Below, piece by piece: positions 1 to 16,682 of a stretch of 16,682 bases of DNA. The DNA is taken from the IMG/VR virus record IMGVR_UViG_2695420653_000007, positions 1 through 16,682 of that record. One strand, written 5' to 3'. The stretch's first letter is position 1. The number at the start of each line of letters is the position of its first letter. The stretch is from a virus. Its lineage: Duplodnaviria; Heunggongvirae; Uroviricota; Caudoviricetes. The notes under the pieces were generated by a model that was not told where the DNA came from, did not search any database, and saw only the letters and a program-made list of their open reading frames with translations. Both the position numbers and the translations under genes were made by a program.

Positions 1-1248
1 ATGGCACTGAATATTCCATTCAGAAATGCGTACTATCGTTTTGCATCCAGTTACTCATTTCTCTTTTTTATTTCCTGGTCGCTGTGGTGGTCGTTATACG
101 CTATTTGGCTGAAAGGACATCTAGGGTTGACAGGGACGGAATTAGGTACACTTTATTCGGTCAACCAGTTTACCAGCATTCTATTTATGATGTTCTACGG
201 CATCGTTCAGGATAAACTCGGTCTGAAGAAACCGCTCATCTGGTGTATGAGTTTCATCCTGGTCTTGACCGGACCGTTTATGATTTACGTTTATGAACCG
301 TTACTGCAAAGCAATTTTTCTGTAGGTCTAATTCTGGGGGCGCTCTTTTTTGGCCTGGGGTATCTGGCGGGATGCGGTTTGCTTGACAGCTTCACCGAAA
401 AAATGGCGCGAAATTTTCATTTCGAATATGGAACAGCGCGCGCCTGGGGATCTTTTGGCTATGCTATTGGCGCGTTCTTTGCCGGCATATTTTTTAGTAT
501 CAGTCCCCATATCAACTTCTGGTTGGTCTCGCTATTTGGCGCTGTATTTATGATGATCAACATGTGTTTTAAAGATAAGGATCACCAGTGCGTAGCGGCG
601 GATGCGGGAGGGGTAAAAAAAGAGGATTTTATCGCAGTTTTCAAGGATCGAAACTTCTGGGTTTTCGTCATATTTATTGTGGGGACGTGGTCTTTCTATA
701 ACATTTTTGATCAACAACTTTTTCCTGTCTTTTATGCAGGTTTATTCGAATCACACGATGTAGGAACGCGCCTGTATGGTTATCTCAACTCATTCCAGGT
801 GGTACTCGAAGCGCTATGCATGGCGATTATTCCTTTCTTTGTGAATCGGGTAGGGCCAAAAAATGCATTACTTATCGGTGTTGTGATTATGGCGTTGCGT
901 ATCCTTTCCTGCGCGCTGTTCGTTAACCCCTGGATTATTTCATTAGTGAAGCTGTTACATGCTATTGAGGTTCCACTTTGTGTCATATCCGTCTTCAAAT
1001 ACAGCGTGGCAAATTTTGATAAGCGCCTGTCGTCGACGATCTTTCTGATTGGTTTTCAAATTGCCAGTTCGCTTGGGATTGTGCTGCTTTCAACGCCGAC
1101 TGGGATACTCTTTGACCACGCAGGCTACCAGACAGTTTTCTTCGCAATTTCGGGTATTGTCTGCCTGATGTTGCTATTTGGCATTTTCTTCCTGAGTAAA
1201 AAACGCGAGCAAATAGTTATGGAAACGCCTGTACCTTCAGCAATATAG
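1..1248 (+). CDS. MFS transporter, LacY-like oligosaccharide:H+ symporter family (415 aa); probable chromosomal flank of the prophage
   Basis: Full-length ORF in track; strongly hydrophobic multi-helix protein; from memory it aligns along its length with E. coli LacY (DKLGLKKPLIW vs LacY DKLGLRKYLLW; YVYEPLLQSN vs FIFGPLLQYN). Window begins exactly at its ATG, so upstream signals are not visible. Confidence 0.8.
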   Translation: MALNIPFRNAYYRFASSYSFLFFISWSLWWSLYAIWLKGHLGLTGTELGTLYSVNQFTSILFMMFYGIVQDKLGLKKPLIWCMSFILVLTGPFMIYVYEPLLQSNFSVGLILGALFFGLGYLAGCGLLDSFTEKMARNFHFEYGTARAWGSFGYAIGAFFAGIFFSISPHINFWLVSLFGAVFMMINMCFKDKDHQCVAADAGGVKKEDFIAVFKDRNFWVFVIFIVGTWSFYNIFDQQLFPVFYAGLFESHDVGTRLYGYLNSFQVVLEALCMAIIPFFVNRVGPKNALLIGVVIMALRILSCALFVNPWIISLVKLLHAIEVPLCVISVFKYSVANFDKRLSSTIFLIGFQIASSLGIVLLSTPTGILFDHAGYQTVFFAISGIVCLMLLFGIFFLSKKREQIVMETPVPSAI

Positions 1249-1386
1249 ACGTAAACTTTTCCGGTTGTTGTCGATATCTCCCTATCCCTCAACCGGAAAA
1301 TAATAATACTAAAGTGCTTAGCCCTGCTAATAATCACCTAATCCAAACGCCTCATTCATGTTCTGGTACAGTCGCTCAAATGTACT

Positions 1387-1563
1387 TCAGATGCGCGGTT
1401 CGCTGATTTCCAAGACATTGTCGTCATTCAGCGACCTGTCCCGTGTATCACGGTCCTGCGAATTCATCAAGGAATGCATTGCGGAGTGAAGTATCGAGTC
1501 ACGCCATATTTCGCTATCAGGATTCTGTGTGATGGTTACATCGCCCGGCCCAGGGCTGTTTAG
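1387..1563 (-). pseudogene. Possible degraded C-terminal remnant of a tyrosine integrase (no start codon, about 58 codons)
   Basis: Minus-strand frame reads ...DSILHSAMHSLMNSQDRDTRDRSLNDDNVLEISEPRI*, which loosely resembles my recollection of the lambda Int C-terminus (HLLGHKSDTMASQYRDDRGREWDKIEIK), with the catalytic Tyr position replaced by Asp. It sits immediately downstream of xis on the same strand, where int is expected. Weak similarity; could be chance. Confidence 0.25.
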
Positions 1564-1776
1564 TCATCAGCGCTTTCTGACAGTGCTGAGATTTCAACCT
1601 GTTGCAGTAAAAATGAGTAGATATAAGGCAAGTGTGCTGCCAAACCTATCTTTTACGGGGTGAAGGTAGATTTCGTTTGAAGGGTATCTGGTGTCCCCTG
1701 CAGACATCTACTTGAAGCGGCAGGGGATTGATTGGAATGGTGTTTTTTAGATGTGAAAAAAATTTTACCCGCTATT

Positions 1777-1977
1777 TTACCCATTGGCGCGGCTTAAGAG
1801 CTTATTTTTGAATTCACAATGGTCACGATATAACCATCTTGCTCGCCCGTGGATAACTTTGGCTTTAGGCAGGTCCCCGGACTTAATCCGGTCATAGATG
1901 AAGGTTTTACCGAAGCCAGTATCGGCCATGATGAATTTCAAATCAACCAGTGAATCAGGCTGTAGTTCGTGTTGCAT
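1777..1977 (-). CDS. xis: Excisionase-like small DNA-binding protein (AlpA/Xis HTH family), 66 aa
   Basis: Track ORF; short basic protein with pattern LVDLKFIMADTGFGKTFIYDRIKSGDLPKAKVIHGRARWLYRDHCEF typical of AlpA/Xis-type HTH excisionases; GGAG about 10 nt upstream of ATG; last gene of the leftward operon, the usual xis position. Confidence 0.7.
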   Translation of the reverse strand: MQHELQPDSLVDLKFIMADTGFGKTFIYDRIKSGDLPKAKVIHGRARWLYRDHCEFKNKLLSRANG

Positions 1978-2022
1978 GAGTGCTATCTCCGAATAGGGAA
2001 TCGAACCTGCAAATCAGGCAAT

Positions 2023-2043
2023 AAAAAAACCGCATTGATGCGG
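2023..2043 (-). terminator. Intrinsic terminator on minus strand (5-bp GC stem CCGCA/TGCGG, 4-nt loop, T7 run)
   Basis: Minus strand reads CCGCA-TCAA-TGCGG-TTTTTTT; lies between the 114-aa gene and xis. Confidence 0.55.
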
Positions 2044-2102
2044 CGATGGTAGGTCTGGATATCTTGAGAAATGAACTGGCCTCATCGAGTGTGAGGCTGT
2101 GG

Positions 2103-2447
2103 TTAGTCCTTGCGTAGCTCGCTAATTCTTCTGTAAGTCTCTGGTGCTTTGTTTCCGTGTATCTTCATTTCAGACTTCAACAGAGCAACGAGTGAATCCC
2201 ATTCGTTGAGGATTCCTTTGAATGCCGGAACGCGCTTTGCAACCTTGTCGAATGAATCTCTGATTTCTGGAATCTGCTCAACAAGTGCAACGCATCGCCG
2301 GAAATCGGCTGCGTCATGTGGAGCGCCGAAGTGATGACCATAGATATTCTTTTTCAGTCCACATGCGATTGAGGCAAGAGTTGCGCTACTGATGCCGACA
2401 TCGCCAGTCGATTGCCATTTCAAAACCTTCATAGCCAAATCTGACAT
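2103..2447 (-). CDS. Hypothetical prophage protein (114 aa)
   Basis: Track ORF; GGAG 8 nt upstream of ATG; flanked by hairpin terminators on both sides. No family recognised. Confidence 0.6.
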   Translation of the reverse strand: MSDLAMKVLKWQSTGDVGISSATLASIACGLKKNIYGHHFGAPHDAADFRRCVALVEQIPEIRDSFDKVAKRVPAFKGILNEWDSLVALLKSEMKIHGNKAPETYRRISELRKD

Positions 2448-2460
2448 TTCTTGTCTCCAT

Positions 2461-2485
2461 AAAACAAAACTCGCCGTAGCGAGTT
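2461..2485 (-). terminator. Intrinsic terminator A on minus strand (stem AACTCGC/GCGAGTT, loop of 4, then TTTTGTTTT), abutting the RBS of the 114-aa gene
   Basis: Perfect 7-bp inverted repeat followed on the minus strand by a T-rich run; directly seen. Confidence 0.5.
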
Positions 2486-2488
2486 CAG

Positions 2489-2516
2489 ATAAAAGAAAAC
2501 CCGCACTCGGCGGGTT
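2489..2516 (-). terminator. Intrinsic terminator B on minus strand (stem AACCCGC/GCGGGTT, loop of 5, then TTTTCTTTTAT), in tandem with terminator A
   Basis: Perfect 7-bp GC-rich inverted repeat followed on the minus strand by a T-rich tract. Confidence 0.5.
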
Positions 2517-2795
2517 CGCATTCGTTCAAATTGCGTTTACTTCTTGGCGTTCTGTTCATCCATATCGATATACCATGGGTTGCTTCCCTTGGGCATGTTT
2601 AACGACTGCTCGCGATAGTATCTGATGCGCTCCATGAAATACTCGCGTGAGTGCTCAGGTTGCTCTCATGATACCTGCTCAGTGATAACAGGTATGTTAA
2701 GGCGCTCTCTGTACTCCATGCCTGATGCTGCAAGGTCAACGTTTACCTTGTTCTGTTTTTCTTTCGATTTCTCGGCGATGTTATGCCTGACATTG

Positions 2796-3038
2796 TCAAC
2801 CCGCCTCCTTCTGAACATAACGGTTATAAATCAGTCCCTGAGGGCCATAAGGAAGCGGGATGTGCAACTCCTCTGGTTCAGAAACTATCCATTCTCCGGC
2901 CATCTCCGCTGGAGAGGTAATGATAAGTTGTTTGCTAATAAAAGGACCACTCCTCTCAACAACAAGCTTACCATCTTCATTAATAAAAGCTTGGATGTCA
3001 GGTGTGCTTCCACACTTGGTGATGCAGCGTTTGAACAT
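2796..3038 (-). CDS. Hypothetical small protein (about 80 aa, MFKRCITKCGSTPD...), moron-like unit with its own promoter
   Basis: Track ORF 2796..3080, but the upstream ATGs overlap the putative promoter; ATG at 3038 is preceded by a G-rich SD (GGGGGGA). AT-rich region with extended -10 immediately upstream. Confidence 0.5.
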   Translation of the reverse strand: MFKRCITKCGSTPDIQAFINEDGKLVVERSGPFISKQLIITSPAEMAGEWIVSEPEELHIPLPYGPQGLIYNRYVQKEAG

Positions 3039-3068
3039 TTTGTGTCCCCCCATTTTATGTACTGGGTA

Positions 3069-3077
3069 ATTATAACA
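3069..3077 (-). promoter_or_regulatory. Putative extended -10 promoter element (TGtTATAAT on minus strand) in AT-rich intergenic region 3039..3164
   Basis: Minus strand reads TGTTATAAT (plus attataaca at 3069..3077), a perfect TATAAT with upstream TG; -35 not convincing. Confidence 0.35.
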
Positions 3078-3164
3078 CATTGAAATATAGTAATATTTGA
3101 CGTAGATTTCTTTTGATCTATAAGCGATTTTTTAATGCTTTTAAGTTATAAATACTTGTTTTCA

Positions 3165-4091
3165 TCACCCATCTTGCTGCGGTGCTACTATTGAAAAGTG
3201 CTCACACCCTTTATCCCAAATAGTTTTGATAGTTGTCCAACTGACTGGAACCTTGATTTCGATTCTCCCGCTACAGTCACAAGTTTCGCAATCATCATCA
3301 CCAAAGCATTCCGGGCAGCTTATAAACGTAGTTTCTGAAAATTCACCGGATAGCACACCCTTAGCGCCGTTCTCGGCTGTTAGTCTCTTCGGCACCATGA
3401 CCCAACCATCCGGAATTACCGGAGAGTTGCCCGATAGTGCATTCTGCTCCAGTGATGCTTTTACAAACCACGCTGCCTGAACTATAACGCCATGAATCCA
3501 GCGCAAATCAGCATCGCGATCTTTCTTTTTCATCTTTTCGCCACTTAAGGCCTTGCTTATGTGGCTGCGTACCAGGTCTTCATGTAATTCCTTCGCCTCC
3601 TCAATGGTGAAACCACCAGGCAGAAGAGCCGGAGTTACCGGAGAGCTGGTTGACGCTTCCGGGATTTCCCGAAAATTATTGGTTGACGAATTCTTGCTTT
3701 CCCGAAAGTTTCCGGACTGAAGCATGGCGGTGCGGCAGGCGTTCCATATTTCGGCAGCAATATCGCGCTCGCTATCGGTTAATTTGTACGTGGAAACATA
3801 GCCAGAGAGCATTTCTACGTTTTCCGGAGTTGCTTCTTCCGGCACTACCGGCGCTGGCGGGGCGGCAAATAGATATCCGCCAAAGTCAGGAAGCTCTCCA
3901 ATGGCCTGTACGAACTTTTGTTTGCCTACGTCAACTCCTAATGGGTAATGAGCTATAATCTTTGCCACCGGCTCTGCTTCCAGCGATACCAGTGCAATCC
4001 GTGCCACTTCCATTTGTTCGCCACGAGTAAGTCCGTTATCAAGCGGATTTTTAATGAATAATTTGATACGTTCTTTGGTCATAGCGCTCAT
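3165..4091 (-). CDS. Hypothetical prophage early-region protein (308 aa) with C-terminal Cys cluster (CPECFGDDDCETCDCSG)
   Basis: Track ORF; start ATG lies 1 nt after the stop of the upstream Ea22-like gene. No confident family assignment. Confidence 0.65.
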   Translation of the reverse strand: MSAMTKERIKLFIKNPLDNGLTRGEQMEVARIALVSLEAEPVAKIIAHYPLGVDVGKQKFVQAIGELPDFGGYLFAAPPAPVVPEEATPENVEMLSGYVSTYKLTDSERDIAAEIWNACRTAMLQSGNFRESKNSSTNNFREIPEASTSSPVTPALLPGGFTIEEAKELHEDLVRSHISKALSGEKMKKKDRDADLRWIHGVIVQAAWFVKASLEQNALSGNSPVIPDGWVMVPKRLTAENGAKGVLSGEFSETTFISCPECFGDDDCETCDCSGRIEIKVPVSWTTIKTIWDKGCEHFSIVAPQQDG

Positions 4092-4092
4092 A

Positions 4093-4911
4093 TCACTCTC
4101 CTTTGATGCGAATGCCAGCGTCAGACATCATATGCAGATACTCAACTGCATCCTGAACCCATTGACCGCCAATCCCGTAATAGCGATGCGTAATGATGTC
4201 GATAGTTACTAACGGATCTTGTTCGATTAACTTCCGCAGAAACTCTTCCAGGTCACCAGTGCAGTGCTTGATGACAGGAGTTTTCCCAGGATGGCGAACA
4301 ACAAGAAACTGATTTCCGACTTCACGGACTTCGTTGCTTTCCAGTTCTGCAATGCGCTTCTCTGCGGCTTCCAGCTTCTCGCGCATATCGTCAACGTACT
4401 CGACCAGAGAACCGCCAGCAGGAATTTCGCACTCCTCGACCAGTTGGAAGTAGATATCAGCTGCGGCCCGTGTGTTGCTATGCCTAGCGTCGCCCATCTC
4501 ACCTTCACGAAGAGCATCGCGTTCGGCGGTAAGATTGGCTATTTTGCTGTCTTTGCCTTCCAGCTCAACGCGCAGCTTCCCTACCGTTAGCGCAATATCC
4601 TCGTTCTCCTGGTCGCGTGATTTGATGTATTGCTGGTTTCTTTCCCGTTCATCCAGTAATGCCAGCACGATAGCTGGATTGGCTGCGGCGATGAATTCAG
4701 CATTGGCCTGCTGTTCCATTTGGAAATCTTCATCGAAACCGCTTTCAGGATGCGCTCCTTCAATTCTGCAAATGGGAAGATATCCAACAACGTCACGATG
4801 AATTAGCGCATCATCACAATCAAATCGGCTCTCTCCATATTCGAGCGACCACACACCACACGTTGCTTTCTCTGCCTTTTCACGCAGTGCCTGATAGTCA
4901 ATTTTGCTCAC
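4093..4911 (-). CDS. ead/Ea22-like family protein (272 aa)
   Basis: N-terminus MSKIDYQALREKAEKAT... and central ...ANAEFIAAANPAIVLALLDE... match my recollection of lambda Ea22-like prophage proteins; followed by a coiled-coil-like region. Confidence 0.6.
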   Translation of the reverse strand: MSKIDYQALREKAEKATCGVWSLEYGESRFDCDDALIHRDVVGYLPICRIEGAHPESGFDEDFQMEQQANAEFIAAANPAIVLALLDERERNQQYIKSRDQENEDIALTVGKLRVELEGKDSKIANLTAERDALREGEMGDARHSNTRAAADIYFQLVEECEIPAGGSLVEYVDDMREKLEAAEKRIAELESNEVREVGNQFLVVRHPGKTPVIKHCTGDLEEFLRKLIEQDPLVTIDIITHRYYGIGGQWVQDAVEYLHMMSDAGIRIKGE

Positions 4912-5393
4912 TGGTTGCCCTCCTTCATAAAAATAATCCAGTGGGTCTTGTCACCCTTTCCTGTTCGTTGACCGATAACAGGCTTTCTGTCTGTCAGTGC
5001 CAATATTTGGCGAACAGGTATTTGCGTTTCATTCCATTTAAAAATCAGAACACCATATGGCCACAACACACGAAAGGCTTCTTTAAATCCCTGCCGCAAA
5101 TCATCACGCCAGGTATCTTTATTCAGCCGTCCATATTTCTTTCCCATCCAGGCGTTATCACCAACACGCTCAAGATGCGGAGGGTCGAATACAACAACCG
5201 GAAACGATGCGTCTGCAAATGGTAATGCACGAAAATCTGCTATCAGGTCAGGGCTAATTATCAGCCGTCGGCCATCACACAATATGTGATCTTCCTTTCT
5301 GATATCGCTAAATATCGCCCGGTCGTCCTTCTTATCGAACCAGAACATGCGACTGCCACAGCACATGTCGAGGATTGCTGCATGTCCAGTCAC
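4908..5393 (-). CDS. Small putative SAM-dependent methyltransferase (161 aa), GTG start overlapping upstream stop
   Basis: Motif I-like ILDMCCGSRMF near the N-terminus and motif IV-like VVFDPPH about 60 residues later, an arrangement seen in amino-methyltransferases (N6A/N4C DNA or RsmD-like). GTGA overlap with the upstream gene. Confidence 0.65.
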   Translation of the reverse strand: MTGHAAILDMCCGSRMFWFDKKDDRAIFSDIRKEDHILCDGRRLIISPDLIADFRALPFADASFPVVVFDPPHLERVGDNAWMGKKYGRLNKDTWRDDLRQGFKEAFRVLWPYGVLIFKWNETQIPVRQILALTDRKPVIGQRTGKGDKTHWIIFMKEGNQ

Positions 5394-6070
5394 TGGTTGC
5401 CTCCTTTGCGAAGCTGGGCGGCGAATCTCTCAGCATCAACAGCGCTTCCGCAATAGGCGGCGCGAGTCATGGAATCCAATTCGTTGCGGTTTTTTCTGAC
5501 GTATTCCTTCTGGCTTTCAGCAAACAACTCTACCCCCTGCGCCCGTACTTCAGCCAGGAATGCGTCGGTGGCTGGGGTTTCGATATTAGGCAGAAGCGCA
5601 TAATCGCAAATCGTATCGATCGCAGGATCACAACAGTCATCCTCGTTGCGTGGTCGTTCGCCAACCTTCGTTGACGATTGCATGATGATTCCCCAGCAAA
5701 TACTATCGACCTCTTCGCTCCATCCATCGCAAGCATCACCGCGATAGTCGTCGATTGCAGCCTCAGCCGATTCGATAGCTTCCTCAGCAGTTTTGTGCCA
5801 TTCAAAATTATGCTCAGAGCCATATGAGAAATATGAATGTCCCGCCTTCATCACCGCACTCTCCGCTGCCAGCGCCGCGCACTTGGCATCAATGTTATCA
5901 ATCGTGATTCCAGCAGAACGACACTCCCGCAACGCCGTTTCTAGTTTTGATTCAAGTTCACCGAACTTACGGACAAGATATTCAGCGTTTGTTTCGTTAA
6001 CCTTTAAATCTCGTGGGATGTATTTACCTTTCAGAAATCCATCCATCTCAATTAGTGACATTTGTTTCAT
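5390..6070 (-). CDS. Hypothetical acidic prophage protein (226 aa)
   Basis: Track ORF; translationally coupled at both ends (ATGA overlap with the 54-aa ORF upstream, GTGA with the methyltransferase downstream). Confidence 0.65.
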
Positions 6071-6231
6071 TTCTTCCCACTCCGCAACATCGCATTCAGA
6101 TATTTGTTTTGATTCACTGATGGAAAAGAATTTCTCTTAAGCAACTCCTCTCTCGATGGCATTGGCTTTACGCGTTGGCGAATAATCATTTCTGCCGGAA
6201 GAATGCCGGGATTGTATGCAAGTCCTCTCAT
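6067..6231 (-). CDS. Small hypothetical protein (54 aa, [54 protein letters not shown]), below the track size cutoff
   Basis: Found by manual translation; its ATG overlaps the stop of the upstream gene and its TGA overlaps the ATG of the downstream gene (ATGA at both ends), filling an otherwise empty 160-bp gap. Confidence 0.4.
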
Positions 6232-6518
6232 GATTTACTCTCCACGAACTGGTCAATAGCCATGCTAAGTGACATACCTAAAGCTTCGATATGCTGCTGA
6301 ATATCCTGTAGCGTCTGCGCCTGAGATAACAGGATTTCACGGTTGCATAACTCTTTAACCAGATGCTCAAACTTGCTGTAATAACCGATACGACTTAGTG
6401 TTTCTTTCCCTGCATTCTCGCCTTCTTTGATAATGCCTCTTTCACTAAGAATCATGTCGTGTTTGGTTCCGGTAATAACGTATTTTCCGAGGTCGATGTT
6501 TAGCTTCATTGTTTTCAT
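6228..6518 (-). CDS. Hypothetical prophage protein (96 aa, [14 protein letters not shown]...)
   Basis: Track ORF 6228..6668 trimmed to the ATG at 6518, which is preceded by GAGGAA and does not overlap the upstream gene ending at 6529. Confidence 0.6.
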
Positions 6519-6528
6519 TGTTAATTCC

Positions 6529-6822
6529 TCAGTCATTACTGATAGCGCCATAGCGTGAGCGGTAATTACGCAGGCGCGGGTCAATTTCAGGGAAGTGGGT
6601 ATATGTGGCTTTGCGGAATGGTCGGATTGATGTCTGGTAAATTCGCTCGCGTTCTTCTTTCTCTGCAAGCCATATACAGTGGCGAAATTCCTTTTCCTCT
6701 TTCGTTTCCTGCGGTAGCGACATTATCCGGTCGTAGTTTTTCCTGAATTTATCCAGCACCTCCGATACGGAATTGCCGGAACAGCGGCGCGCGTCGTCCG
6801 CACCATACAGAGGCGCTGGCAT
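6529..6822 (-). CDS. Hypothetical prophage protein (97 aa)
   Basis: Track ORF; AAGGA 7 nt upstream of ATG; located immediately downstream of ssb. Confidence 0.6.
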   Translation of the reverse strand: MPAPLYGADDARRCSGNSVSEVLDKFRKNYDRIMSLPQETKEEKEFRHCIWLAEKEERERIYQTSIRPFRKATYTHFPEIDPRLRNYRSRYGAISND

Positions 6823-6845
6823 AATTAAATCCTTATTTTTCTAAA

Positions 6846-7229
6846 TCAGAATGGGATGGAATCGTCGTATACAGGAGTGTTCTGCTGGTTACTACTTTGC
6901 TGCTGCGGGCCATTTCCTGAAGCTGCAAATCCAATCTTTGCATTCAGTAATTCAAGAGTGATTGATTGACCATTTTGCCCCTGATAAACATCAACCCTGA
7001 TATTTTCTCCGGTAATTTCCACAATGCCACCTTCAACAAGAACACTACGGTAGTAATCCGCTTGCGCCCCCGGCTTGGCAAATACAACGGCGCTGTAGTT
7101 TGTCCATTCTTTCTTTTTTGTCTGGCGATCGTAATACTGAACGCCAGCACGGATGTTGAATCCGATATTTTCCCCGGCCTGAAACTCTCTTGCGGGCTTG
7201 TTTAGTCTTACTGTAATCGAATGTGCCAT
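6846..7229 (-). CDS. ssb: Single-stranded DNA-binding protein (phage SSB, about 127 aa)
   Basis: C-terminal acidic tail ...PVYDDSIPF (E. coli SSB ends DDDIPF); Gly/Gln/Asn-rich linker before the tail; start ATG overlaps the erf stop (TAATG). Confidence 0.8.
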   Translation of the reverse strand: MAHSITVRLNKPAREFQAGENIGFNIRAGVQYYDRQTKKKEWTNYSAVVFAKPGAQADYYRSVLVEGGIVEITGENIRVDVYQGQNGQSITLELLNAKIGFAASGNGPQQQSSNQQNTPVYDDSIPF

Positions 7230-7834
7230 TAAGCAGTTGCCCCTTCTAATTCGCCTCGTCTGATGTTGTAAACGTCCTGCGCTTTGTGCTGCTCCGGCGT
7301 CCCTTCGAGCATCTTCCACGCTTTGGCGAACGCCTGTTTAAGCTCTTCTACGGTGTTTTTCTGCATTGCTGCGTCAGTGAATGCTTTTAGAACCTGTTCA
7401 GGTGTAGGTGATGGTTTTGATTGCTTTGCTGCTGCGTTCTGCTGATGTTTATGCTCGTCGGTATCTGCATCTTTCGCATCATCAATGCCGAACAAACCAT
7501 TGAGGCAATACTTGCGTGCATAAGAGCTTGTAGCCCCCGTAACTTGTGCAGAATCCATTCCTTTCTTGCTTTCTTCCTCTCGTGCTAGTGCGGTTGCCGT
7601 ATGACTGTTTTCGCCATCGGTAATAGTTGCCGTGGCTTTCACATAATACCGATCACCAATCAACACAACTTCATCGCTGATTGATAAAAACAGGCCATTC
7701 AGTAACGGCTTAACGCCTTCAAGAATGTCTTCGCAGCTTCTGTATTTATATTTACCGAATGAGTTGTACTGATTCTTTGGCGCGTTCAGATTCTCCTGAA
7801 TAGCTGCCAGTCTTGCGTAAAATTCTTTGCTCAT
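7229..7834 (-). CDS. erf: Erf-family single-strand annealing recombinase (201 aa)
   Basis: From MSKEFYARLAAIQENLNAPKNQYNSFGKYKYRSCEDILEGVKPLL... onward it matches, as I recall it, Salmonella phage P22 Erf almost residue for residue; track ORF trimmed to the ATG at 7834. Confidence 0.9.
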   Translation of the reverse strand: MSKEFYARLAAIQENLNAPKNQYNSFGKYKYRSCEDILEGVKPLLNGLFLSISDEVVLIGDRYYVKATATITDGENSHTATALAREEESKKGMDSAQVTGATSSYARKYCLNGLFGIDDAKDADTDEHKHQQNAAAKQSKPSPTPEQVLKAFTDAAMQKNTVEELKQAFAKAWKMLEGTPEQHKAQDVYNIRRGELEGATA

Positions 7835-7844
7835 ATGATTGTTC

Positions 7845-8015
7845 TCAGAATGGACATGGCCCAAGGAAATAACGCTGATTTAATACTTCGACTCGGGACA
7901 AATTAAGGCATACCCGCATTCCTTCGCGGTCGCCATTATGGCGATACCAGAGAGCTTTCTGCGTGTACATGCGTCTCTGTAACTTGCTCTCCTTCACTGT
8001 GGTTGCAAGTGACAT
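7845..8015 (-). CDS. Small protein (56 aa, MSLATTVKESKLQRRMYTQKALWYRHNGDREGMRVCLNLSRVEVLNQRYFLGPCPF) in the arf position just upstream of erf
   Basis: Manual translation; strong SD (AAGGAG, 6-nt spacer) before ATG; stop lies 10 nt before the erf ATG. Positionally equivalent to P22 arf but identity not confirmed. Confidence 0.45.
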   Translation of the reverse strand: MSLATTVKESKLQRRMYTQKALWYRHNGDREGMRVCLNLSRVEVLNQRYFLGPCPF

Positions 8016-8094
8016 GAATATCTCCTTCGTTACCGATTAATTCTTTCATCTGACGAATGAATTCTTCGTCTGACCAGTTATCTGTAAAACTCAT
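7936..8094 (-). CDS. Alternative small ORF (52 aa, MSFTDNWSDEEFIRQMKELIGNEGD...) translationally coupled to kil; overlaps the arf-position ORF in another frame
   Basis: ATG overlaps the kil stop (ATGA). Overlaps 7845..8015 by 80 nt; unclear which of the two (or both) is expressed. Confidence 0.3.
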   Translation of the reverse strand: MSFTDNWSDEEFIRQMKELIGNEGDIHVTCNHSEGEQVTETHVHAESSLVSP

Positions 8095-8243
8095 TTCCTG
8101 CGATACCATGGAAGGTTGATAGCTGATTTCATCGCTTTATTTGCTTCAAGCCACATTTTGGAATCACCAATAAATCTGGCTATTACTGCTTTGTTCTGTG
8201 CAGCACGAAGCATCTGGTGATTAATGGCTATTTCATTGCGCAT
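8091..8243 (-). CDS. kil: Kil-like host-killing/cell-division inhibitor peptide (50 aa)
   Basis: Manual translation MRNEIAINHQMLRAAQNKAVIARFIGDSKMWLEANKAMKSAINLPWYRRK; the IARFIGDSKMWLEA segment resembles lambda Kil (ATFIGDEKMFREA, from memory); sits directly after cIII as in lambda/P22; GAGG upstream. Confidence 0.55.
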   Translation of the reverse strand: MRNEIAINHQMLRAAQNKAVIARFIGDSKMWLEANKAMKSAINLPWYRRK

Positions 8244-8359
8244 AATAAGACCTCAACTCTTTTCCATCCGTCACGTAATTTACGGGTGATTCGTTCAAGT
8301 AAAGATTCATTTAGTTGGAAGGCACCCATGCGAGCGCCTACCGCGATTGCGTAAATCAT
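8228..8359 (-). CDS. cIII: CIII protein, FtsH inhibitor (43 aa)
   Basis: Manual translation MIYAIAVGARMGAFQLNESLLERITRKLRDGWKRVEVLLCAMK; the core ESLLERITRKLRDGWKR is identical to the lambda cIII central helix; AAGGA 7 nt upstream. Confidence 0.8.
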   Translation of the reverse strand: MIYAIAVGARMGAFQLNESLLERITRKLRDGWKRVEVLLCAMK

Positions 8360-8383
8360 GGGTGGTTCCTTATGTTGGTTTTA

Positions 8384-9352
8384 TTAGTAGGTTATTTTTG
8401 TTGCGAATACTTCGCCTTTTACGATGGCTGTTATGATATTTTTAGCAACATCTTCTGATGCGCCAACCTTGATAAGGTCAGCAAGTATTTTGTTATTTAC
8501 TTCTTTCCGGTGAGCTTTATCCTTTGCTCTACGCTCTTCTTCGTCCTTGATTCTTTTTTCTTCTGCTATTCTGGCTTGCTCTTTTGCTTCAGCATCGCGA
8601 CGGATTTGTTCAGCCTCCTCCTGTGCTTTTCGGCGTTCTGCTTCAATTGCCGCCTGCTTTTCTCTTTCAGCTCGTTCTGCTGCCTCTTTTGCTTCGCGCT
8701 GTGCTCGTTGCTCGGCTTCAATGCGTTCACGCTCTGCACGTTCCGCTGCGGCCTTAGCTTCTGCTTCTCGCCTTGCTGCTGCTTCAATTTCGGCTTTTGC
8801 CTTTGCTTCGGCTTCAGCTCTGGCTTTCGCTTCAGCTTCTCTTTTTAAGCGTTCTTCATGCTCTCGCTTTTCCTGCTCCGCTTTGAGTCTTGCCTCTTCT
8901 CTTTGGCGGTCAAATTCGCGATCCATCAAAATAGCTATTTCATGGTCAGACTCAATTTGCTTTGCGAGAGCTTCAGCTGCTGCCTTAGCTTCTTCTTCGG
9001 CTTTAATCCGCGCCTGTTCTTCCTCATAATCAGTAAGAGGCTGGCGCGCCTTGGCTTTCAGCTCATCAAGGCGATCACGCACTGTCTTGCGGTTAGCATC
9101 AATTAGCTTTGGAATTTCCTTCAGTTCAGCAACAAGGTCTTTGCCAAGACCATCGAGATATGTTTTCGTCTGCGAAACTTTATACGCCAGAGAAGCGATC
9201 TCCTTTCTGCCCTTTGCCGTTGTGATATCAGGCACAAAGGACATAACTTCACGTTCAACCTTTTGAAGGATTTCTTCAATCTGGTCGGCAGACTGAAATA
9301 CAGTCATTGCATTTGCTTTTTCAATAACAACTAAATCTGTTACTTCACTCAT
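8384..9352 (-). CDS. Hypothetical phage protein (322 aa) with long Ala/Glu/Lys/Arg-rich charged coiled-coil (TolA-like low complexity)
   Basis: Track ORF trimmed to ATG at 9352 (MSEVTDLVVIEK...) preceded by GGAGG; about 150 residues of EAKAKAEAEA-type repeats encoded by GCTTC/GCTGC-rich DNA. Confidence 0.7.
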   Translation of the reverse strand: MSEVTDLVVIEKANAMTVFQSADQIEEILQKVEREVMSFVPDITTAKGRKEIASLAYKVSQTKTYLDGLGKDLVAELKEIPKLIDANRKTVRDRLDELKAKARQPLTDYEEEQARIKAEEEAKAAAEALAKQIESDHEIAILMDREFDRQREEARLKAEQEKREHEERLKREAEAKARAEAEAKAKAEIEAAARREAEAKAAAERAERERIEAEQRAQREAKEAAERAEREKQAAIEAERRKAQEEAEQIRRDAEAKEQARIAEEKRIKDEEERRAKDKAHRKEVNNKILADLIKVGASEDVAKNIITAIVKGEVFATKITY

Positions 9353-9363
9353 ATATCCTCCAT

Positions 9364-9393
9364 AAAAAAAATTGCCCTCACATTGGAGGGCAA
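9364..9393 (-). terminator. Strong intrinsic terminator on minus strand (8-bp stem TTGCCCTC/GAGGGCAA, 6-nt loop, T8 run), tL-like
   Basis: Perfect 8-bp inverted repeat followed on the minus strand by eight T; the T-run abuts the RBS of the 322-aa gene. Confidence 0.65.
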
Positions 9394-9486
9394 AGAAGAT
9401 TTCCAATAATCAGAACAAGTCGGCTCCTGTTTAGTTACGAGCGACATTGCTCCGTGTATTCACTCGTTGGAATGAATACACAGTGC

Positions 9487-9675
9487 TTATTCGTCATGCA
9501 TTTCAGGTAATTCTTCGTATTCGACGCCCCATACGAGTTTACACCAAGTGACTCGCTCATATCTTTTACAAAAATCAGACCACATAACTTGTGTTCCATC
9601 ATGGTTTGTTATTACTTCTGTAATATCACCAACACTAACAAAACTGGTATTAGAAGCAGTTATTTTTACTTTCAT
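9487..9675 (-). CDS. Hypothetical small protein (62 aa), AT-rich accessory gene
   Basis: Track ORF; ATG overlaps the stop of the upstream 98-aa gene (TAATG); followed by a 9-bp-stem hairpin at 9454..9481. Confidence 0.5.
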   Translation of the reverse strand: MKVKITASNTSFVSVGDITEVITNHDGTQVMWSDFCKRYERVTWCKLVWGVEYEELPEMHDE

Positions 9676-9971
9676 TACTTATCCCCAAGAGCTTTTCTTA
9701 TTGCTGCGAGACCTTTATTAACAGCTCCATACCATTCTGGATATGTTGTCGTTGTTCTATTTTTGGTTTGCTTAAGTAATAACTGAAGTGCTTCGAGAAG
9801 GTCAGGTGCTGCCGCTATTAGATTGGCATCTTCAATGCATTGAACTTCCTCACAGATTGCAATATACGAACGCCAGCCTGCGCCATTTTCAAGTGAGTCT
9901 GCCTGGATGATTTTAATCTCATCCCCATCCATCATTATTTCCCACTTACCTTCAGTACCTTTAAATCCCAT
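9675..9971 (-). CDS. Hypothetical acidic protein (98 aa), AT-rich accessory gene
   Basis: Track ORF; AGAGG 7 nt upstream of ATG; coupled to the 62-aa ORF. Confidence 0.55.
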   Translation of the reverse strand: MGFKGTEGKWEIMMDGDEIKIIQADSLENGAGWRSYIAICEEVQCIEDANLIAAAPDLLEALQLLLKQTKNRTTTTYPEWYGAVNKGLAAIRKALGDK

Positions 9972-10023
9972 GTTAGCCTCTGTTGTTTATGCCAAAAATA
10001 AAGGACGGTTATGCGGCCTGAAA

Positions 10024-10446
10024 TTACTTAACCAATGATGCTGCATATTCAATTAGGAATAACTTAGGTGCAAGCCAAATCTTCAACCATTCGAAATTGA
10101 AGGCAATAATTAAAACACCCATAATTGAGCCAAATATAGGAACAAATACAGTGCATATATCGTAATAAACCGAAGATATAAAATGTCCATCATTTGGACG
10201 TCCATCGAAAGACGTCCATCTCTCGCCATTATTTCTTGCCGTTCTTGCAAAACTAGGAAGTTTAATTGCTGCAATTAAAAGCAACAATCCAGCCACTTGG
10301 AAAAGTGCGCTATGGACAAAACTCCATATTAGCAACTGATGAACAACATCAGGAATCTGTGCCTGGCTAAATGAAACAGCCGCATCTATTCCATTGCTGG
10401 CTTTTTGCAGTAGTTCTACGAGAATCTTGTTGGCTTGTTCTTCCAT
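10024..10446 (-). CDS. Hypothetical membrane protein (140 aa, about 2 TM segments) immediately downstream of N; SieB-position superinfection-exclusion candidate
   Basis: Track ORF; two long hydrophobic stretches; its SD (GAGGTG) overlaps the N stop codon; position matches sieB in lambda/P22 but no sequence identity established. Confidence 0.6.
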   Translation of the reverse strand: MEEQANKILVELLQKASNGIDAAVSFSQAQIPDVVHQLLIWSFVHSALFQVAGLLLLIAAIKLPSFARTARNNGERWTSFDGRPNDGHFISSVYYDICTVFVPIFGSIMGVLIIAFNFEWLKIWLAPKLFLIEYAASLVK

Positions 10447-10454
10447 ATATCACC

Positions 10455-10754
10455 TCAAATAAGTGGTTTGCTGCCTAATTTCATTTTCTGGCGACCAACA
10501 CAAGTCACCCCCATTTCACTGCGTGGCTTGCGGTAGTAAATATGATTCTGTTTACGCTCGACTTCTTCTGCCTTCTTGCAGCGAAGGCTTCCGAGTGATG
10601 CTGCTTTATCTGCTCTGACGCAACCAGAGAGCTTTAGCGCAATTTTTCGCGCCAGTCGCTGTTCTTGCATTGCCTGCTCACGTTGAGCCTGTCTGCGTGC
10701 TCTGCGGCGATTTCTGGCGTTATCGTCAGCCAGATATGTAATGACTACTGCCAT
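10455..10754 (-). CDS. N: Antitermination protein N (99 aa)
   Basis: Arginine-rich motif near N-terminus (NARNRRRARRQAQREQ); C-terminus YYRKPRSEMGVTCVGRQKMKLGSKPLI closely resembles lambda N C-terminus (WYSKPGERGITCSGRQKIKGKSIPLI, from memory); GGAGG 6 nt upstream; nutL in leader. Confidence 0.85.
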   Translation of the reverse strand: MAVVITYLADDNARNRRRARRQAQREQAMQEQRLARKIALKLSGCVRADKAASLGSLRCKKAEEVERKQNHIYYRKPRSEMGVTCVGRQKMKLGSKPLI

Positions 10755-10861
10755 GTTGACCTCCGATGATTGACTTTGGCGGTGACGCGCCGGGTGCTTA
10801 TCTTCCGGTTGCCGTCGTGCAGCTGCACTTCACGTCACCCCAAAGCCAACTACTCTTTGGT

Positions 10862-10902
10862 TCCCGCATTTCGGCGGGACAATCCCATCAATGTTAAAGA
10901 GC
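10862..10902 (-). promoter_or_regulatory. nutL: boxA (GCTCTTTAACAT, 10891..10902) and boxB hairpin (UCCCGC-CGAAAU-GCGGGA, 10862..10879) on the leftward transcript
   Basis: Same boxA core and identical 18-nt boxB as the site after cro (nutR); correct order boxA then boxB in the N leader. Confidence 0.6.
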
Positions 10903-10948
10903 CTGCCAATCTGTTCCGTTTGGCTTCCAGCGTCCTGCTGATGGCTAA

Positions 10949-11035
10949 AGAATACTGTAGGTATTTTATTGTGTAAATACCCAAGGTATTTATTTTTGGT
11001 GAAATAATGATAAGCAAATGAATACAAAGGATATT
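10949..11035 (-). promoter_or_regulatory. pL/OL region: operators AATACTGTAGGTATT (10951..10965), AATACCCAAGGTATT (10976..10990), AATACAAAGGATATT (11021..11035); putative pL -10 TATTCT and -35 TTTACA on minus strand
   Basis: Three 15-bp sites with inverted half-sites AATAC/GTATT, the same consensus as at OR; -10 overlaps OL1 and -35 overlaps OL2 with a 17-bp spacer, as at lambda pL. Confidence 0.55.
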
Positions 11036-11121
11036 TATTTTTTCGGTGTCTGCTTGTTCAGTGCTTTTTATGCGGGATATGTGAAGTGGATCCCGATAGC
11101 TATTGCTGCCGGGATTATGGG

Positions 11122-11490
11122 TTAGTCAGCGAAGGTTAAGACGAGAATTACCTTAATGATGTCTGCTACAACAGACACGGCCATAGATAAACCAAAGACA
11201 ATCCAAGCCATAGAGATGTCTTCACTACCATCGTATAGAGTTCCGTAATCACTGGTGTAAGGCGTAAATGTCGCGCCTTGATACAATAGGTATAAGCTTG
11301 ATCCATAGAGGATAAATGCAGATATCCCTTGTATTGCTATGATCACCAGAATCATGAAACGAGCTGATCTATGCGCCCAAGCCTGGCTTATTTTTTCTGA
11401 TAGAGATTTCGCAATAAAAGCATGCGCTAAGCCGTAAATTGTCGAGATTGCCAACATCCCAAAAAAGCTTGCTATAGCGGTTCCAACCAT
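11122..11490 (-). CDS. Small integral membrane protein (about 122 aa, 3 predicted TM helices) co-transcribed with cI; rex-position accessory gene
   Basis: Track ORF 11122..11511 trimmed to ATG at 11490 (AAGGGG 7 nt upstream), which lies 18 nt downstream of the cI stop; three long hydrophobic segments; no family recognised. Confidence 0.65.
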   Translation of the reverse strand: MVGTAIASFFGMLAISTIYGLAHAFIAKSLSEKISQAWAHRSARFMILVIIAIQGISAFILYGSSLYLLYQGATFTPYTSDYGTLYDGSEDISMAWIVFGLSMAVSVVADIIKVILVLTFAD

Positions 11491-11507
11491 AAGCGCCCCT
11501 TGCGTGA

Positions 11508-12224
11508 TCAAACCAGCCTTAGTTTTGTCTCAATTGCAACGCCTATAATCTTGCAGTTTCCATTGATTGGCACGAGAGGCCATGCAGGGTTAAGTCCCTT
11601 GAGGTATTTATTTCCGCCGTCGATTATCAGCTTCTTGAATGTTGCTTCGTTAGAGTCAGAAAGTTTTGCTATGACCAAGCTGCCGTTGATCGCCTCCCTT
11701 CCGGTATCGAAAAGAACGAATGTTCCCTCTGGAATGCTTAACCCAACCGGTGCCGTCATTGAATCACCTTCCACTTTAAGCCAAAACGCATTACCTTGAA
11801 TATGCGCGTCAGACTCAAGCCAAACATCTATGTCTTTAATGGTGTATGGTTCGCATGCTTCACACCACGAGCCAGCCTGGATACTGCTTAACACCGGATA
11901 CCTCTTTCCTGCTCTGTATTCCCCTGCATACCTTACGTTGGCATCGCTCTTAAGGCTTTCTGCCTGTTCTGCAACCTTGGCAGCAATTGACTGGCTAAAA
12001 TCAGCAATTGAGACTTGCAACAGTCGTGCAAAACCAGATGCAACCTCAACGTTTAGCGCGTTTCTGCCATTAAGATAATGCCCTACCGCTCCTTGGGTGA
12101 TACCAAGTTCATCAGCAATTGAGTATTGGGTTATTCCCAACTCTTTCTTTTTTGACTCATACAAAGCCTTAAGCCGCTTAGCGTCTTCGAGCTGTTCTGT
12201 CGTCAGTGATTTCTTATTTTCCAT
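11508..12224 (-). CDS. cI: CI repressor (238 aa; N-terminal HTH, C-terminal LexA-like S24 autopeptidase domain)
   Basis: N-terminus LTTEQLEDAKRLKALYESKKKELGITQ parallels lambda cI ([27 protein letters not shown]); C-terminal FWLKVEGDSMTAP and FKKL motifs (catalytic Ser/Lys); no SD before ATG, consistent with a leaderless pRM transcript. Confidence 0.9.
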   Translation of the reverse strand: MENKKSLTTEQLEDAKRLKALYESKKKELGITQYSIADELGITQGAVGHYLNGRNALNVEVASGFARLLQVSIADFSQSIAAKVAEQAESLKSDANVRYAGEYRAGKRYPVLSSIQAGSWCEACEPYTIKDIDVWLESDAHIQGNAFWLKVEGDSMTAPVGLSIPEGTFVLFDTGREAINGSLVIAKLSDSNEATFKKLIIDGGNKYLKGLNPAWPLVPINGNCKIIGVAIETKLRLV

Positions 12225-12230
12225 AGCTTA

Positions 12231-12301
12231 ATTCTAATAGCTAAGGTACTTAAACTAAAAATACCCTGAGTATTGATTGCTTTGAATACCTGTAGTATTC
12301 T
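12231..12301. promoter_or_regulatory. OR/pRM/pR genetic switch: OR3 AATAGCTAAGGTACT (12236..12250), OR2 AATACCCTGAGTATT (12260..12274), OR1 AATACCTGTAGTATT (12285..12299); pR -35 TTGATT (12273..12278) and -10 TATTCT (12296..12301); pRM -10 TAGAAT on minus (12231..12236)
   Basis: Three evenly spaced (24-25 bp) 15-bp sites sharing the AATACnnnnnGTATT consensus with OL; promoter hexamers overlap the operators as in lambda; pRM -10 is 6 nt from the cI ATG. Confidence 0.6.
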
Positions 12302-12330
12302 TTGTTCATGGTTAATAACGGAGTGTGCAT

Positions 12331-12525
12331 ATGATTCGAATGACACTTGCCGATTACGCCAAAATCCATGGACAGGCTAAAGCAGCCAGTGACTTTGGTG
12401 TAATCCAGTGCGCTATCAGCAAGGCCATTCTGGCAGGCCGTAACATTATGGTTACGGTAAAGCCTGATGGCAGTGTGATTGGAGAGGAAGTTCGTCCTTT
12501 CCCAAGCAACAAGAAAAACAAATAG
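12331..12525 (+). CDS. cro: Cro repressor (64 aa)
   Basis: [64 protein letters not shown] parallels lambda Cro (...[57 protein letters not shown]); GGAG 7 nt before ATG at 12331. Confidence 0.85.
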
Positions 12526-12531
12526 TAACAC

Positions 12532-12577
12532 CGCTCTTTAACAGTCATGGTCCTCATTCCCGCCGAAATGCGGGAAT
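12532..12577 (+). promoter_or_regulatory. nutR: boxA CGCTCTTTAACA (12532..12543) and boxB hairpin AUUCCCGC-CGAAAU-GCGGGAAU (12556..12577)
   Basis: Begins 7 nt after the cro stop; boxA close to the CGCTCTTA consensus; boxB identical to that in nutL. Confidence 0.6.
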
Positions 12578-12582
12578 ACAAC

Positions 12583-12617
12583 GCGCATCAGTTGGTGCGC
12601 ATAACTTCTTATTTGTT
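12583..12617 (+). terminator. tR1-like hairpin (GCGCAUC-AGUU-GGUGCGC) followed by U-rich tract, between nutR and cII
   Basis: 7-bp stem (one G-U pair) and AUAACUUCUUAUUUGUU downstream; position matches lambda tR1. Confidence 0.35.
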
Positions 12618-12633
12618 AAGGAAATACTTACAT

Positions 12634-12912
12634 ATGCAACTTACAAGTACTCGCAAGAAAGCGAATGCAATTACAAGCAACATCCTAAATCGAATTGCTG
12701 TACGTGGTCAGCGAAAGGTTGCTGATGCATTAGGGATCAATGAATCGCAAATTTCGCGATGGAAAGACAGCTTCATCCCAAAAATGGGAATGCTTCTGGC
12801 TGTTCTTGAATGGGGTGTTGAAGACGAGGAGTTGGCGGAACTGGCTAAGAAAGTAGCCAGAATGCTGACAAAAGAAAAAGCCCCGAAGAACGGCGAATTC
12901 TTCGAGGCCTGA
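12634..12912 (+). CDS. cII: CII transcriptional activator (92 aa)
   Basis: ...GINESQISRWKDSFIPKMGMLLAVLEWGVEDEELAELAKKVARMLT matches lambda cII (...GVDKSQISRWKRDWIPKFSMLLAVLEWGVVDDDMARLARQVAAILT); ATG at 12634 preceded by AAGGAAA; track ORF starts further upstream but that region contains nutR. Confidence 0.85.
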   Translation: MQLTSTRKKANAITSNILNRIAVRGQRKVADALGINESQISRWKDSFIPKMGMLLAVLEWGVEDEELAELAKKVARMLTKEKAPKNGEFFEA

Positions 12913-16181: not shown

Positions 16182-16584
16182 CGCCATAGACGCAATACTC
16201 TCACTTCCCATCGACGACAAGTCACCCCACGAAGTCCACCTTAAAGAACCCAAACGCAGCAAAGCGCAGAATGACCGTATGTGGCCGATGCTGAACGATG
16301 TTTCGCGTCAGGTGCTATGGCATGGTCAACGGCTGGCACCGGAAGACTGGAAAGACCTGTTCACTGCCCTGTGGCTTAAGACCAAAAAACTGGAGCAACG
16401 AAGTGTTCCTGGTATCGACGGTGGCGTTGTCATGCTTGGCGTGCGTACCAGCAAAATGCGAAAGGCCAGCATGACTGAGCTTATCGAAATCATGTTCTGG
16501 TTCGGCTCAGAGCGCAACGTGCGGTGGAGTGATGACTCCCGGCGAGAGTATGAATGGTCACAACGAAAAGGGAAGGCTGCATGA
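16138..16584 (+). CDS. ninB: NinB (Orf-family recombination mediator)
   Basis: QNDRMWPMLNDVSRQVLWHGQRLAPEDWKDLF parallels lambda NinB (QNRKLWACLGDVSRQVEWHGRWLDAESWKCVF); start could alternatively be the ATG 15 nt downstream. Confidence 0.85.
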   Translation: MKQIYMLRNEAIRNNAIDAILSLPIDDKSPHEVHLKEPKRSKAQNDRMWPMLNDVSRQVLWHGQRLAPEDWKDLFTALWLKTKKLEQRSVPGIDGGVVMLGVRTSKMRKASMTELIEIMFWFGSERNVRWSDDSRREYEWSQRKGKAA

Positions 16585-16682
16585 CTATCAAATCAAATAC
16601 GCCAGCACACGACAAGGACTGCTGGCAAACGCCGCTTTGGCTTTTTGATGCACTGGATATTGAGTTTGGATTCTGGCTGGAT
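16581..16682 (+). CDS. Phage Dam-family DNA N6-adenine methyltransferase, 5' fragment (continues beyond window)
   Basis: N-terminus MTIKSNTPAHDKDCWQTPLWLFDALDIEFGFWLD matches the remembered start of phage Dam-family enzymes (W-x-TP-x-LF ... F-x-LD); ATG overlaps the ninB stop. Confidence 0.65.
   Translation, partial: MTIKSNTPAHDKDCWQTPLWLFDALDIEFGFWLD

Follow-up and report, generated by a model that had tools for sequence, protein, structure and literature searches.

A putative stand-alone amino-methyltransferase inserted as a cassette in the early-left accessory region of an HK620/P22-like Escherichia coli prophage

Gene content and layout of the block

The DNA considered here, the whole 16,682-nucleotide (nt) stretch of IMG/VR virus record IMGVR_UViG_2695420653_000007 (positions 1 to 16,682; hereafter the window), is an Escherichia coli prophage of the lambdoid HK620/P22 type. 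The minus strand of the window carries, at 4093-6822, a block of six genes: abc2, a DUF5405 gene, a DUF2737 gene, a gene for a 226-amino-acid (aa) protein resembling that of HK620 hkaH, a gene for a 161-aa putative methyltransferase, which is the main subject of this analysis, and an Ead/Ea22-like gene (Table 1). An original prediction, made from the letters of the DNA alone, had described the block as a translationally coupled accessory operon of six consecutive ORFs (open reading frames) with overlapping stop and start codons. All six ORFs lie where it had placed them; the junctions between them consist of four 4-nt overlaps and one 10-nt gap.

The junctions were measured by script. Between abc2 and the 96-aa gene, where the original prediction had listed an overlap, the stop codon TGA and the start codon ATG are separated by the 10 nt just mentioned, within which a GAGG is found. 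The two following junctions, 96-aa to 54-aa and 54-aa to 226-aa, are both ATGA overlaps, while the two junctions of the methyltransferase gene, with the 226-aa gene upstream and the 272-aa Ea22-like gene downstream, are both GTGA, the second of these having been read as ATGA in the original prediction. AGGAGG is present 6 nt upstream of both GTG starts (161-aa and 272-aa genes). Outside the block, the Ea22-like gene is followed by the 308-aa gene through TGAtATG, and the erf and ssb-like genes upstream share a TAATG overlap. This packing is real yet not unusual, being normal for phage operons. A consensus scan of 3000-8500 gave no minus-strand promoter-like or terminator-like site within 4093-6822, and such matches in the scanned region were at or below shuffle expectation. 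Because the junctions are tight and internal promoter-like or terminator-like sites are lacking in that scan, the block can be regarded as one translationally coupled stretch of a longer transcript.

The early-left operon of the window extends from the N-like gene over kil, erf, ssb, and abc2 as far as the excisionase gene. The same gene order and strand are found in the early-left 'ea' region of HK620 (int ... hkaG, hkaH, hkaI, hkaJ=abc2, ssb), and the early-left region of P22 (eaD, eaF, eaE, orf56, abc2, abc1, erf, kil) is collinear with the window. The likeness to both phages extends over abc2, the gene at the DUF2737 position, the hkaH/EaE-like gene, and then the Ead/Ea22-like gene, with 4-nt overlaps, and HK620 shares in addition the end with a TorI-type excisionase. 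Since the order abc2, DUF2737, hkaH-like, Ea22-like is that of HK620 and P22, the block corresponds to the well-known and highly mosaic 'ea' region. Three features set the window apart: a DUF5405 gene follows abc2, as in Sf6 and HK446 but in neither HK620 nor P22; an SSB-like gene takes the place of P22 abc1; and the methyltransferase gene stands between the hkaH-like and Ea22-like genes, where HK620 and P22 have none. The genes are thus co-directional and tightly coupled, as originally predicted; judged by its collinearity with HK620 and P22, however, the block appears to be the distal accessory 'ea' part of the early-left operon rather than a self-standing operon. Within the phage collection, coverage of the 2.7-kb block by any one relative stays at or below 48%, and no E. 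coli genome reaches 80% coverage of the surrounding 5 kb; this limited coverage is typical mosaicism.

By analogy with lambda and P22, the block would be expressed after infection or induction as part of one long antiterminated transcript that is silent in the lysogen. The biology of the same two phages suggests that this transcript would start at the early-left promoter PL and depend on the N-like protein, and the 4-nt stop/start overlaps would let ribosomes move from gene to gene.

The methyltransferase gene as an inserted cassette

A segment, AGGAGG(G)CAACCAGTGA, occurs twice in the window, once at each end of the methyltransferase gene (Table 1). Alignment with HK620 shows that the single hkaH/hkaG junction of that phage equals the upstream flank of the 226-aa/methyltransferase junction joined to the downstream flank of the methyltransferase/Ea22 junction. 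METHYLTRANSFERASE is a cassette. Since the single junction of HK620 is split into the two junctions of the window, the 486-bp gene must have been inserted exactly at the stop/start overlap, bringing a second linker copy with it, and the coupling on both sides of the cassette is preserved.

The cassette is absent from HK620 and P22, and other E. coli prophages carry this gene beside different neighbours, including DUF2737, DUF977, and YdaT genes. At least 80% of the gene is held by 855 of 5,426 complete E. coli genomes (about 16%). In the one O157:H7 genome inspected, that of E. coli O157 strain 180-PT54 (locus L010, 6012-6485), an internal stop makes the gene a pseudogene, and the prophage around it is degraded; a copy of 92.6% identity is carried by other O157:H7 genomes.

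Fold and motifs of the 161-aa protein

The original prediction had pointed to a motif I (DMCCGS) followed by a motif IV (DPPH), and both are present in that order, at residues 9-14 and 70-73, respectively. In an alignment of 45 diverse family members, 14 residues are invariant (D30, R32, P48, D70, P71, P72, H73, W95, E105, R108, L110, K119, W120, and P138), all of which are retained by the window protein. L8, D9, C12, and G13 of motif I, which follows strand 1, are nearly invariant. In the predicted model, strands are formed by residues 7-10 and 26-30, and DPPH directly follows the strand of residues 64-69. The model thus has the seven-stranded Rossmann-like fold expected of a class I S-adenosylmethionine (SAM)-dependent methyltransferase, with the motif I glycine and the invariant acidic residue after strand 2 (D30) for SAM binding, and a motif IV of the (D/N/S)PP(Y/F/W) kind directly after strand 4. 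The original prediction depended on a Rossmann methyltransferase fold, and on this point it stands, since the fold is there in the model.

At the family level, Methyltransf_11 and Methyltransf_25 are matched by 44 and 42 of the 45 members, respectively. The window protein matches PHROG 954 'DNA methyltransferase' at 8.7e-87 and, over their full length, the REBASE-style PADLOC models MTase_II (8.8e-73) and orphan MTase (1.7e-49), which does not imply that the members of these models are characterized. It does not match the beta-class model PF01555 (N6_N4_Mtase), in keeping with a motif order of I then IV rather than IV then I; weak, sub-threshold matches to this model occur in 18 of the 45 relatives, the best at 9.7e-4. 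Nor does it match PF05869 (phage Dam), which is instead matched by the gene starting at 16581. The latter had been predicted as a second, Dam-family methyltransferase, and it does match the N-terminus of the Dam model (9.1e-8 on 34 residues, above the curated cutoff). A search of the PDB chains with the single protein returned nothing meaningful (the best match was a metallo-beta-lactamase, E = 0.21), and a search with the family profile gave only PH0226 (7.8e-5) besides the non-significant RsmD and Trm11 matches discussed below.

The prediction that the protein has neither a target-recognition domain nor a partner nuclease is borne out. In the model, all 161 residues are taken up by the catalytic core, leaving no target-recognition domain. 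In a PADLOC scan of the 17 larger ORFs of the window, no restriction nuclease model was matched, and the neighbours of the gene are ea genes rather than the adjacent cognate nuclease of a type II restriction-modification system. The N-terminal extensions of some relatives were considered as a hidden recognition domain and rejected, as they do not align with one another and contain no Pfam domains; they are probably gene-call run-ons or unrelated fusions.

Family distribution and genomic neighbourhoods

The family is large, with 7,778 proteins at E <= 1e-5 among 90% clusters and 1,992 clusters at 50% identity. The window copy shares 98% identity with a cluster of 271 member sequences on 116 contigs. 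Family members occur in temperate phages of many phyla and in 255 phage records, including phages of Streptococcus, Vibrio, Acinetobacter, Porphyromonas, Listeria, Gordonia, Enterococcus, Lactobacillus, Staphylococcus, and others. Three homologues were aligned with the window protein, to which that of a Gordonia phage is 62% identical, that of a Porphyromonas phage 56%, and that of a Streptococcus phage 46%, and haloarchaeal viruses carry relatives at 35-38%.

In the contexts inspected, the gene sits in the early recombination or replication modules of temperate phages, and no universal partner gene travels with it. Of about a dozen independent contexts, roughly half have a further DNA methylase, either adjacent to the gene or one gene away. 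For instance, a C5 DNA methylase (PF00145) lies directly upstream in Gordonia phage Bosnia and in one metagenome contig; another lineage has a PF01555 methylase one gene upstream; and in Klebsiella aerogenes prophages a PF00145 methylase lies directly downstream with a 4-nt overlap. A 673-aa neighbour in one contig was examined as a relative of the C5 methylases and rejected as unrelated.

The Klebsiella arrangement has the small core fused to a C-terminal module of approximately 85 aa (phrog_16025). Citrobacter phage phiNP carries this module at the end of a PF05869 Dam protein, which again directly precedes a C5 methylase, and in ST64B-type phages it ends PAPS-reductase-like proteins (the latter according to tblastn annotations only). 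Because the small core and the Dam-family domain both precede the same module and a C5 methylase, the core takes the slot of the Dam-family domain in a conserved two-gene unit for DNA modification. The module also forms the C-terminal end of phrog_111, and in Klebsiella phage 5 LV-2017 it is annotated as an 85-aa gene of its own. In each of the three loci inspected (L016, 5001-7708; L014, 1820-4421; L015, 2498-4725), an overlapping large PF00145 C5 methylase follows it directly, and the module may be an adaptor to the large methylase.

Substrate and role of the methyltransferase

The explanation that accounts best for the whole, and that can be put forward with fair though incomplete confidence, is that an early-left ea block with abc2 has taken up, as a cassette, a DNA amino-methyltransferase for restriction resistance. 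The product would be a minimal SAM-dependent amino-methylating enzyme, as suggested by the invariant DPPH after strand 4, and it would methylate exocyclic amino groups of bases (N6 of adenine or N4 of cytosine) in replicating phage DNA, so that the progeny DNA would then resist restriction in the next host. As there is no recognition domain, the sequence specificity may be short or relaxed. Taken apart from the question of its purpose, that is, with protective and regulatory roles counted together, DNA as the substrate is likely. DNA is the most likely substrate because the family often stands beside DNA methylases and takes the slot of a Dam domain. The role is probably protective, by evasion of restriction. 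On the question of substrate, genomic context is more telling than the fold and profile comparisons, which do not decide it.

The nearest known parallel is the small phage Dam family, PF05869, to which Haemophilus phage HP1 Dam presumably belongs. Like the 161-aa protein, PF05869 proteins are phage-borne amino-methyltransferases of very small size that stand alone, carry a (D/N)PPx motif, and lack a separate recognition domain; they are encoded in early or nin-region locations, and the two kinds of core are interchangeable before a C5 methylase in one two-gene arrangement. The two differ in that they share no sequence match and in that GATC specificity is proven for PF05869, unlike for the 161-aa family (PMC12435837). 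PamA from a Staphylococcus aureus prophage, a PF05869 member of 141 aa with NPPY, methylates GATC in DNA (PMC12435837), and so small size alone is no argument against DNA specificity. Non-specific enzymes provide another comparison: M.EcoGII is a prophage-borne non-specific adenine methylase of 349 aa and beta class that stays silent in the lysogen and is believed to give phage DNA broad protection (PMC5778455). M.EcoGII and the alpha-class Hia5/Hin1523 resemble the 161-aa enzyme in being prophage-borne orphans, but they are twice the size and have a central recognition region and another motif order, and a relaxed specificity of the 161-aa enzyme is a conjecture.

Several observations count against a DNA-methylating enzyme with a protective role. 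The top structural neighbours are generic Methyltransf_11-type proteins and the RNA enzymes Trm11, TrmN, RsmC, and Bud23, with M.TaqI only at Foldseek rank 29. The profile-to-PDB matches near DPPH are the RsmD-like HI0767, Trm11, and an rRNA m4,2C synthase, all non-significant (E = 0.37, 0.7, and 1.5, respectively), and they include no DNA methylases. The window protein passes no Pfam or NCBIfam threshold, and its motif IV has an atypical fourth residue, His. Isoelectric points (pI) are uninformative, the median of the family being only 8.4. DNA methylases neighbour the gene in only about half of the contexts, and none does so in this window. No experimental study of any family member, DPPH motif included, was found in the literature searched, the coverage of which was incomplete. 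Finally, an identity of 46-62% in the three aligned homologues, which come from phages of other phyla, would also be consistent with a target other than DNA that is universally conserved.

A tentative alternative, with a modest share of the probability, is that a minimal amino-methyltransferase of approximately 150 residues without a recognition domain acts either on DNA with little or no sequence preference, as M.EcoGII or Hia5 do at more than twice the size, or on a universally conserved RNA or protein target of the host. Either type of target would explain the core identity of 46-62% in phages of Streptococcus, Gordonia, and Porphyromonas as well as the more distant haloarchaeal relatives. 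The enzyme could methylate host or phage RNA (e.g., m2G, m6A, or m4C on tRNA or rRNA) and thereby alter translation or evade an RNA-directed defence. Trm11, TrmN, RsmC, and RsmD share the Rossmann core and the DPPx after strand 4 and are among the better structural or profile matches; however, these matches are all weak and generic, and those enzymes work with RNA-binding domains or partner subunits (THUMP, Trm112), whereas the 161-aa protein has no THUMP, PUA, or other RNA-binding domain, and the extensions of its relatives are not conserved. The recurrent adjacency and slot-sharing in phage DNA-metabolism modules, moreover, are with DNA methylases and not with RNA enzymes, and the full-length matches are to REBASE-style DNA methyltransferase models, all of which makes an RNA substrate unlikely. 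Methylation of a protein (at a glutamine or lysine nitrogen) or of a small molecule, with DPPH used as in PrmC-type or EFM5-type enzymes, has a very low probability, as similarities of this kind stem from the common Rossmann core, the gene is associated in the genomes with DNA-modifying genes, and the model contains no substrate-binding lid or extra domain.

If DNA is the substrate, methylation could still serve a regulatory or replicative role of the phage, such as expression timing, packaging, or self-marking of new DNA, rather than protection from restriction. The gene is an orphan with no nuclease in the window, it is located among recombination and replication genes in many phages, the prophage already has a second, Dam-family methylase, and orphan methylases of prophages, such as PamA, can alter host gene expression (PMC12435837). 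No pointer to a regulatory target was found, however, and a dispensable cassette that is missing from close relatives such as HK620, and that has become a pseudogene in the single O157 genome inspected, looks more like an accessory trait than like a core regulator; this role, too, is improbable. That pseudogene, together with the fragmentation of neighbouring genes in some related prophages, could also suggest that in this prophage the gene has no function and is a passenger undergoing decay. Such decay is extremely improbable for the window copy, which is of full length with every family-invariant residue, has a strong Shine-Dalgarno sequence and intact overlaps with both neighbours, and is nearly identical to a large cluster of sequences.

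Other genes of the block

The first gene of the block is abc2. P22 Abc2 has been shown experimentally to bind RecBCD and redirect it, and the window product, which by its sequence is placed in the same family and whose gene follows the recombinase and ssb genes as in P22 and HK620, would do likewise. The original prediction, which had identified this as the region where P22 carries abc1 and abc2, is thus right as regards abc2; Abc1 is absent, its position being filled by the SSB-like gene. The DUF5405 protein was considered as a candidate for Abc1 and rejected (E = 2.9 against P22 Abc1). Its homologues are found in Sf6, HK446, ES18, and P2-like phages, and the longest ORF at its locus, from a TTG start, would be 146 aa. 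The label 'replication initiation protein' given to the DUF5405 family in PHROG and RefSeq seems to have no support; P2-like phages have the homologue as a small ORF next to the actual replication gene A.

The DUF2737 gene lies in the same place after abc2 as P22 orf56, a positional match only, as the sequences were not compared. In the 226-aa protein, residues 1-60 are nearly identical to HK620 hkaH, and there is a short, weak local match to P22 EaE. The 272-aa protein is Ea22-like, as had been proposed, and is the counterpart of HK620 hkaG and P22 eaD, with a local match to P22 EaD at 4e-17. Lambda Ea22 is linked to the lysis-lysogeny decision rather than to defence. The suggestion that the block is likely anti-defence is borne out by homology for Abc2 only, as library scans of the DUF5405, DUF2737, 226-aa, and Ea22-like proteins matched no defence or counter-defence model. 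In the literature searched, nothing was found under the HK620 ea-gene names. The accessory-gene screen of Silas et al. mentions Abc1 and Abc2 and not the 161-aa methylase, and Abc1 triggers abortive infection from P4 in that one screen (bioRxiv 10.1101/2023.04.06.535777).

Prophage setting

At the left end of the window (1-1977 stretch), the prophage adjoins a host gene for a LacY-family sugar transporter, which in related genomes is the 'oligosaccharide MFS transporter' of the csc locus. No integrase gene is found between the TorI-type excisionase gene and this host flank, the position of int in P22. The minus strand carries the excisionase gene, small accessory genes, abc2, the ssb-like gene, erf, kil, the N-like antiterminator gene, and a LexA-type repressor gene, and the plus strand carries, rightward, an O-type replication gene, a DnaC/IstB-type ATPase gene, and ninB.

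Three further loci of the window deserve mention. Just upstream of the replication O gene and on the same plus strand (12947-13591), there is a gene for a 214-aa T5orf172/MUG113-domain protein with PADLOC matches to the candidate defence family PDC-S57 (4.4e-29) and to part of PD-Lambda-1, which may be a defence moron carried by the prophage. A DNA polymerase III theta-like gene on the minus strand (about 2538-2819) is annotated as a pseudogene with an internal stop on comparison with E. coli PI6; a 152-aa plus-strand ORF that lies over it (2625-3083) has no Pfam or PHROG match and probably represents a shadow ORF. A protein of 322-340 aa with a long charged KAEAEA-type repeat, probably a coiled coil, is encoded between kil and the N-like region (8384-9406, minus strand) and matches only PHROGs of unknown function.

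Table 1. Positions of the genes and junction segments in the window, with the matches on which their assignment is based.
Feature	Position	Strand	Matches and remarks
TorI-type excisionase gene	1777-1977	-	resembles the HK620 TorI-type gene
308-aa protein	3165..4091	-	phrog_60 7e-43; next operon gene after the Ea22-like gene
Ead/Ea22-like protein, 272 aa	4093..4911	-	GTG start; PF13935 Ead_Ea22 4e-30, 105.6 bits vs cutoff 27
Downstream copy of the duplicated junction	4908..4924	-	AGGAGGGCAACCAGTGA; Shine-Dalgarno, GTG start of the Ea22-like gene, TGA stop of the methyltransferase gene
Putative stand-alone class I SAM-dependent amino-methyltransferase, 161 aa	4908..5393	-	GTG start; DMCCGS ... 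DPPH; inserted cassette
Upstream copy of the duplicated junction	5390..5405	-	AGGAGGCAACCAGTGA; Shine-Dalgarno, GTG start of the methyltransferase gene, TGA stop of the 226-aa gene
Acidic mosaic protein, 226 aa (hkaH / HK97 gp37 / EaE-like)	5390..6070	-	phrog_614 3.4e-51; pI 4.65
DUF2737 protein, 54 aa	6067..6231	-	PF10930 3.4e-32; position and family annotation as HK620 hkaI
DUF5405 protein, 96 aa from ATG	6228..6518	-	PF17399 4.3e-5; phrog_154 9.8e-33
abc2, anti-RecBCD protein, 97 aa	6529..6822	-	PF11043 5.6e-63, full length (1-97 of 97); phrog_656; 93% identity to P22 Abc2
SSB-like gene, 127 aa	6846..7229	-	phrog_44 single-strand DNA binding protein 2.9e-27; occupies the P22 abc1 position
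erf, single-stranded DNA-annealing recombinase	7229..7834	-	PF04404 ERF 2.2e-44; phrog_155; upstream neighbour in the same operon
NinB	16138-16584	+	nin region, just before the Dam-family gene
Start of second methyltransferase, phage Dam family	16581..16682	+	unrelated to the 161-aa protein; nin region after ninB; cut by the window end

Biological meaning

The block is a textbook mosaic accessory region, and the only gene of known function in it, abc2, is already well studied. The cassette is a clean example of how lambdoid phages gain a gene while keeping translational coupling, by way of a duplicated Shine-Dalgarno/GTGA linker of 16-17 nt. As judged from sequence comparison, the methyltransferase appears to be an intact, orphan, recognition-domain-free member of a widespread phage family, which is common, occurring in about 16% of complete E. 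coli genomes and comprising nearly 2,000 clusters at 50% identity. If the family were indeed a recognition-domain-free DNA methylase, it would provide a very small tool enzyme as well as a widespread anti-restriction device; if its target were RNA or protein, it would represent a new kind of phage host-takeover function.

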